Source: Escherichia coli O157:H7
GTDB taxonomy: Bacteria; Pseudomonadota; Gammaproteobacteria; Enterobacterales; Enterobacteriaceae
Direction: 5' to 3' (one strand)
DNA length: 64,000 bases
Assembly: GCF_013167455.1 (NCBI RefSeq)
Contig: NZ_CP038328.1
Made by a program: the position numbers and the translations under genes. How positions within the stretch are numbered: the first letter of the stretch is position 1; each line of letters begins with the position of its first letter. Positions 15,802 to 16,073 of this stretch are shown in pieces. The notes under the pieces are model-generated. The model was not told the origin of the DNA, ran no database searches, and was given only the letters and a program-made list of their open reading frames with translations.

Positions 15802-15924
15802 TGAAAAATCTCCTGTTCACCATGAAACGCCACGCAAGCATCCCTCATGGTCAAAGTATATGGCATATGTGAATCCATGGTTACATGTTCTACCAAATAT
15901 GAGCAAATCATAATGAAAGTAGGA

Positions 15925-15941
15925 TCAACCAATTATAAACA
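15925..15941 (-). promoter_or_regulatory. Candidate PhoP box upstream of slyB
   Basis: Minus-strand sequence TGTTTA-TAATT-GGTTGA resembles the PhoP direct-repeat consensus (T/G)GTTTA-N5-(T/G)GTTTA, about 125 bp upstream of slyB start. Confidence 0.35.
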
Positions 15942-16073
15942 AAACATTCATGATGATTATTGATTTGAAGATAATGTTTTACTACCAACGGTAAAAATCG
16001 GTCATTCCGCATGGTATTCACGAAAAGTTTATGTTTGAGTGTGCGCAAACGTCAGATTGAAAAAGGATGAACT

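Follow-up and report, generated by a model that had tools for sequence, protein, structure and literature searches.

What activates slyB in Escherichia coli O157:H7, and what does the untranslated leader between its promoter and its start codon contribute? According to published reports, SlyB protects outer-membrane proteins when the envelope is under stress and, in Salmonella, exerts negative feedback on PhoP. An earlier note on this locus, made from the sequence, had proposed that a PhoP-type direct repeat (hexamer-N5-hexamer) with a degenerate second half-site lies on the minus strand about 125 bp upstream of the slyB start codon, which would imply a 5' untranslated region of roughly 100 nt. 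We analysed the proposal in the whole stretch of DNA surrounding the site, which is 64 kb long (hereafter the window), in orthologous loci of other bacteria and in the published literature.

The PhoP box and promoter of slyB

In the window, slyB is an open reading frame on the minus strand (15334-15801) that encodes a 155-aa outer-membrane lipoprotein and starts with the ATG at 15801-15799. RefSeq gives the name 'outer membrane lipoprotein SlyB' in an O157:H7 genome that is 100% identical over the upstream region. The divergent gene anmK starts at 16074, and the 272-bp stretch between the two genes (15802-16073) is the slyB-anmK intergenic region. Many O157:H7 genomes match this stretch at 100% identity, and it was found in 5425 of the 5426 complete E. 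coli genomes. The gene order, according to the RefSeq annotation of one identical genome, is pdxH, mliC, anmK, slyB, slyA, ydhI and ydhJ. At the other end of slyB, the convergent slyA (14847-15287, plus strand) is separated from it by a GC-rich inverted repeat of 12 bp, GCGTGTGGTCAG-TAAC-CTGACCACACGC (15298-15325), which has the appearance of a terminator and lies 9 nt past the slyB stop and 11 nt past the slyA stop. It is likely a bidirectional terminator common to both genes, at which the slyB transcript would end.

The proposed box, TGTTTATAATTGGTTGA, occupies 15925-15941 on the minus strand and can be read off exactly as had been claimed. It is a direct repeat TGTTTA-TAATT-GGTTGA, with the first half-site at 15936-15941 and the second at 15925-15930, and its 3' edge is 124 nt from the ATG, very close to the distance given before. 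Relative to (T/G)GTTTA-N5-(T/G)GTTTA it has a single mismatch, at the fourth base of the second half-site; GGTTGA is thus degenerate in the sense of departing from the consensus at one base. Such deviations are tolerated by published functional PhoP boxes, and the second half-site of Salmonella slyB, for example, is GGTTAA. The repeat reads 5' to 3' on the minus strand, which is the coding strand of slyB, and it is in direct orientation. No other site with two or fewer mismatches occurs on either strand of the slyB-anmK intergenic region.

Could the 17-mer simply be a chance likeness in AT-rich intergenic DNA, with some other element driving slyB? As a bare motif match, the box is at chance level for a window of 64 kb. 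Matches with at most one mismatch to the PhoP consensus number 2 in the window for 0.95 expected, i.e. they arise about once per 64 kb, and at least two of them were found in 26 of 100 shuffles of the window. The other of the two matches (45864-45880, discussed below) looks fortuitous, as this explanation would have it. With at most two mismatches there are 22 matches for 15 expected. An expectation of 0.06 came from a pattern that had been fitted to this very site, and we discount it for that reason. The motif match alone is not significant, and the case therefore rests on position, conservation and literature. What raises the box above chance is its place relative to the -10 hexamer and the mapped transcription start, together with its conservation across genera.

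The position of the box was compared with the elements downstream. The hexamer TATGAT (15907-15912, minus strand), the -10 element of the promoter that we call P1, starts exactly 12 nt downstream of the box, the gap between the box end at 15925 and the hexamer start at 15912 corresponding to one helical turn. There is no usable -35 element: at 16-18 nt upstream of the -10, the hexamers AATTGG, TAATTG and ATAATT share at most two of six bases with TTGACA. This lack of a -35-like hexamer fits promoters where the activator replaces the -35 contact. A simple sigma-70 scan returned no promoter on the slyB strand, as expected for a promoter that is activator-dependent and has no -35.

The transcription start can be transferred from K-12. 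From the box to the ATG, K-12 MG1655 is identical to the window; the two are told apart by an indel of one base, which lies about 100 bp upstream of the box. The K-12 start was mapped to 1717801 (+) with 193 reads and a 5' untranslated region of 99 nt, and it is the one slyB start in that table (Kim et al. 2012, PMC3415461). The promoter string given in the same work, TGAATGTTTTGTTTATAATTGGTTGATCCTACTTTCATTATGATTTGCTCA, ends in TATGATTTGCTCA, whose last base is the start. An independent mapping also placed slyB p1 at -99 and lists the RegulonDB slyB p1, sourced to Minagawa 2003, at the same position (Mendoza-Vargas et al. 2009, PMC2760140). In the window this start is A15900, 7 nt after the -10, so that the box spans -41 to -25 and the leader of the PhoP-dependent mRNA (15802-15900, minus strand) is 99 nt long. 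The published start thus agrees with the proposed position of the box, and the leader of about 100 nt that the earlier note had implied is borne out by the -99 start of an identical promoter. The leader ends with a Shine-Dalgarno sequence, AGGAG (15810-15814), of which GGAG is invariant in 74 of 74 sequences from outside Escherichia.

These 74 distinct non-Escherichia sequences come from a scan of representative bacterial genomes for SlyB, which yielded 80 orthologous loci, all from Enterobacterales. The genera covered were Escherichia, Salmonella, Citrobacter, Enterobacter, Kluyvera, Kosakonia, Lelliottia, Atlantibacter, Trabulsiella, Cedecea, Mangrovibacter, Mixta, Pantoea and Rosenbergiella. 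A relaxed box was found 135-144 nt upstream of the ATG in 67 of the 80 loci, and the other 13 have aligned box variants in the same columns. In the per-position profile of the non-Escherichia sequences, which covered 15790-15965, GTTTA (15936-15940) and GTT.A (15925-15929) carry 1.5-2.0 bits per position, while the five spacer bases carry at most 0.74 bits each and the positions upstream of the box at most 0.6 bits. Within the -10 hexamer, T15912, A15911, A15908 and T15907 are conserved at 81-100% in the same sequences. Except in Rosenbergiella, no indel separates the box from the -10 hexamer. Half-sites that are near-invariant amid variable sequence, and whose distance of 12 nt from the -10 of the mapped -99 start is the canonical one, are not what a fortuitous resemblance would leave behind.

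The conservation profile also bears on the one base at which the E. coli box departs from the consensus. This base, G15926, is A in 78% of the genera, and in Enterobacteriaceae the second half-site is mostly GTTAA rather than GTTTA. The 'degenerate' half-site is therefore ancestral (GTTAA) and not a product of decay.

Among Escherichia lineages, the second half-site is GGTTGA, GGTTCA or GGTTAA. One genome labelled E. coli, SCPM-O-B-8794, has the box variant TGTTTATACTTGGTTAA (locus L003, 1360-1500). Its leader variant is shared with Escherichia sp. E1V33 and E. whittamii and is not the version of K-12 and O157.

Recognition of hexamer direct repeats phased by about 11 bp is common to all winged-helix response regulators. 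The repeat might hence serve another regulator of the OmpR/PhoB family (for instance RstA, PmrA or OmpR), a reading to which the conserved second half-site GTTAA, off the PhoP consensus, lends some weight; or PhoP might act from it on anmK, whose start is 133 bp away. The orientation and the 12-nt phasing, however, match those of PhoP architecture I as described for slyB in Zwir et al. 2012, and at this position PhoP boxes act in an orientation-dependent manner. Our search of the literature returned no study in which PhoP controls anmK. Binding of PhoP and dependence of slyB on phoP have moreover been reported in Shigella, Salmonella and Yersinia, as well as in E. coli through Minagawa 2003 as cited in a later paper. 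Taken together, we consider it very improbable that the repeat belongs to another regulator or to anmK.

The published evidence for PhoP itself is extensive. In Shigella flexneri, the slyB PhoP box is listed as the 19-mer ttGTTTAtaattGGTTgAt (Lin et al. 2018, PMC5775216, Table 5), which is identical to the window. Phosphorylated PhoP shifts the Shigella slyB promoter fragment; the footprints of that study covered other promoters, and its evidence for slyB is this EMSA on a fragment (Lin et al. 2018, PMC5775216). In the phoPQ mutant, slyB expression falls to 0.41 (array) and 0.19 (qRT-PCR) of the wild type (PMC5775216). This reduction, together with the binding of phosphorylated PhoP to the promoter fragment, upholds the statement in the earlier note that slyB is activated by PhoP. 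The 17-mer, the promoter from box to ATG and the -99 start are the same in the window as in K-12 and Shigella.

In Salmonella, slyB was studied by DNase I footprinting and S1 mapping, according to Zwir et al. 2012 (PMC3335776). They describe a single box, TCGTTTAAGATTGGTTAAT, in direct orientation and 12 nt from TATGAT, a PhoP-dependent start and a leader of 100 nt, and they assign the promoter to PhoP architecture I with predicted class II activation. The E. coli promoter has the orthologous position, the same TATGAT and the same 12-nt spacing, and its leader is 99 rather than 100 nt long. The Salmonella box differs in having a first half-site that starts with C and a second half-site GGTTAA, and the Salmonella -10 is 6 nt from the start, compared with 7 nt for that of E. 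coli. The two boxes also fall in different submotifs (Harari 2010). PhoP binding to slyB in Salmonella was additionally observed by ChIP (PMC2681069).

For Yersinia pestis, a footprint and primer extension showed a PhoP-dependent slyB start (Perez et al. 2009, PMC2650801). In the same study, the slyB promoter contained a PhoP box in every enteric species analysed, and slyB and phoPQ were the only targets that PhoP directly activates in each of the ten (PMC2650801). Where slyB orthologues were footprinted, in Salmonella and Y. pestis, the results are consistent with the position proposed here. Direct PhoP regulation of E. coli slyB is credited to Minagawa 2003 in PMC2650801, and PhoP binding in E. 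coli at exactly 15925-15941 is accordingly taken second-hand, from Minagawa 2003 as cited there. The E. coli SlyB protein is also induced through PhoQ. PhoP binding and the dependence on phoP and low Mg2+ thus come from literature on identical or orthologous DNA. The slyB box is itself already known: RegulonDB holds a PhoP site for slyBp, and slyB is a core member of the PhoP regulon. With published assays showing PhoP bound to identical and orthologous sites, the explanation by chance likeness is already effectively refuted, and we give it a negligible probability.

The promoter resembles those of mgtA and phoP, the class II prototypes, in having a repeat placed over the -35 region, 12 nt from the -10, and no functional -35. 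It differs from them in its second half-site, which is the consensus GTTTA in mgtA and phoP. The leaders also differ: that of mgtA is a riboswitch-like element of 264 nt that senses Mg2+ and proline, while that of slyB has no Rfam match. The features of architecture I are all present at slyB, i.e. the repeat, its orientation, the 12-nt spacing, a mapped start (from the literature) and conservation. We are therefore highly confident that 15925-15941 is the PhoP-binding site of slyB P1, a class II (architecture I of Zwir) PhoP-activated promoter. In the mechanism that we propose, PhoQ would sense low Mg2+, acid pH or antimicrobial peptides and phosphorylate PhoP, a dimer of which would bind TGTTTA-N5-GGTTGA at -41 to -25. 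Bound PhoP would substitute for the missing -35 hexamer and recruit RNA polymerase to TATGAT, and transcription from A15900 would yield a slyB mRNA with a 99-nt leader. The class II contact between PhoP and RNA polymerase at slyB is suggested by the position of the box and by the precedent of mgtA.

Other PhoP-like repeats in the window

The window holds a second probable target of PhoP, upstream of rstA. This gene (52724-53443; RstA by NCBIfam, 484.8 bits) is followed by rstB (51419-52720), and a PhoP box, TGTTTAGAAACGATTGA (53500-53516, minus strand), precedes the rstA ATG at 53443. The hexamer TATTGT lies 23 nt downstream of TGTTTAGAAACGATTGA, a distance of two helical turns. In Salmonella, the architecture III box of rstA, TCGTTTAGAAAAGATTTAT, is also 23 nt from the -10, as given in Zwir 2012 (PMC3335776), and architecture III needs the alpha-CTD of RNA polymerase in that organism. 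Judged by its sequence, the rstA box of the window matches the published Salmonella architecture III promoter of rstA. Both rstA and slyB thus have direct-orientation PhoP repeats upstream of PhoP-activated genes, but the distance to the -10 is 23 nt for the former and 12 nt for the latter.

The other one-mismatch repeat, CGTTTAGCACGGGTTTA (45864-45880, minus strand), falls in the last codons of an open reading frame of 417 aa, about 115 nt upstream of one of 502 aa. We rejected it as a functional site, as it is coding sequence and no -10 follows at a distance of 12 or 23 nt. A literature search found no link of ydgA to PhoP. The repeat probably arose by chance and illustrates how often the motif turns up as background.

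In the slyB-anmK intergenic region, a search for a second or reverse box with at most two mismatches returned none. The only other candidate, TATTCACGAAAAGTTTA at 16015-16031 on the plus strand, is a weak repeat of PhoP type that has three mismatches; it is in the opposite orientation and nearer to anmK. This repeat may be behind the slyB boxes 'in both orientations' of an earlier bioinformatic paper.

A candidate second promoter, a hairpin and an MgrR complement in the leader

Does P1 account for most of the expression of slyB? The leader contains a candidate sigma-70 promoter, P2 (15855-15884, minus strand), which would be independent of PhoP, with a -35-like hexamer GTAACC (15879-15884), a -10 hexamer TATACT (15855-15860) and a predicted start near A15848. 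Its consensus across genera is ATGACC-N17-TATAAT. Among the 74 non-Escherichia sequences, TATAAT is conserved at 99-100% and the upstream TGAC at 89-95%, and the P2 element is more conserved than the PhoP box in other genera. Zwir et al. 2012 (PMC3335776) place slyB among nine PhoP-dependent transcripts with unusually long leaders. They also report, for Salmonella and E. coli, a PhoP-independent slyB start that is stronger in high Mg2+; from its sequence and place, P2 is probably this second start. A second slyB start is absent from the K-12 5' mapping table (PMC3415461), and the supplements of Cappable-seq and SMRT-Cappable-seq have no relevant entries.

These observations raise the possibility that the PhoP box is real and that most slyB expression nevertheless comes from P2, PhoP being an inducible layer over a constitutive output. 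The better conservation of the TATAAT element (15855-15860) in other genera and the PhoP-independent start described in Zwir 2012 speak for it. In the window, however, the two hexamers read GTAACC and TATACT, i.e. both are weakened in Escherichia. The K-12 mapping shows the -99 start only, and slyB mRNA falls to 0.2-0.4 of the wild type when phoPQ is mutated in Shigella. Dominance of P2 is thus conceivable, and we regard it as unlikely. It would in any case complement a PhoP-activated P1 rather than exclude it.

Between the -10 of the candidate P2 and the Shine-Dalgarno sequence AGGAG, the minimum free energy fold of the leader has a hairpin, ACCAUGA-GG-GAUGCU-UGCGU-GGCGUU-UCAUGGU (15819-15851, minus strand). 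In an alignment of 81 sequences, 75.8% of the cells pair, against 37-60% with slid partners, and changes on both sides affect 46 cells, where shuffles give 20.8 +/- 6.4; this test favours the structure because the latter was taken from the window sequence itself. The compensatory changes include GCUC/GAGC and GCCC/GGGC. RNAalifold on the raw MAFFT alignment returned no pairs in the leader, and the fold of the slyB leader as a whole is no more stable than that of shuffles (z = 0.33). No Rfam family was assigned to the leader: a scan of 15250-16150 at E <= 10 returned noise alone. If P2 starts near 15848, the hairpin would be at the very 5' end of its transcript.

The 5' arm and the loop of this hairpin overlap a stretch complementary to MgrR, the PhoP-induced sRNA (Rfam STnc560), whose sequence we took from locus L083:2818-2915 (minus strand). 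The complement, GGAUGCUUGCGUGG (15830-15843, minus strand; -42 to -29), is predicted to pair with nucleotides 58-71 of MgrR through 14 contiguous pairs, two of which are G-U. In a seed-restricted scan, the duplex has an energy of -24.2 kcal/mol compared with -13.9 +/- 2.2 for shuffles, none of 300 being as good. For eptB, a validated target of MgrR, the predicted pairing involves MgrR nucleotides 54-72 and spans the eptB start codon; the region of MgrR concerned is the same as for the slyB complement. Folding of full-length MgrR-leader duplexes was dropped, as it produced duplexes of 90 nt that are meaningless.

A TRIC-seq preprint lists slyB among the MgrR partners common to TRIC-seq and RIL-seq. 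Our literature search found no paper on an MgrR-slyB site or on the direction of the regulation. Outside Escherichia, pairing of the leaders with the E. coli MgrR sequence has a median of -13.9 kcal/mol, which is the background. The extended pairing with E. coli MgrR is thus restricted to Escherichia, and the GGAUGC core alone persists elsewhere. The conserved hairpin and the 14-nt MgrR complement of E. coli suggest that the leader may play a post-transcriptional role. A broader reading is that the 99-nt leader is itself a regulatory module, made of a promoter-like element conserved across genera, a covarying hairpin and, in Escherichia, an MgrR site, and that it would close a PhoP feed-forward loop. 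This is plausible, and we hold it tentatively, as somewhat short of probable.

The place of slyB in the PhoP regulon

The PhoP regulon of Enterobacteriaceae has a conserved core, made up of slyB and phoPQ. The placement of the box upstream of slyB is a sound annotation to which our analysis adds nothing new; it serves as a calibration case, in which a published regulator site and a leader length were recognised from sequence alone. The conserved organisation of the leader appears to be the only material that is not obviously in the literature searched, and this architecture is the one part that might merit work at the bench. The contact between MgrR and slyB is already in the RIL-seq and TRIC-seq lists, and what could be novel is confined to the site, the hairpin and the logic of two promoters. 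If the reading of the leader as a regulatory module is true, P1 and P2 transcripts might be unequally stable or unequally sensitive to MgrR, and PhoP would control slyB both by direct transcription and through MgrR acting on the leader.
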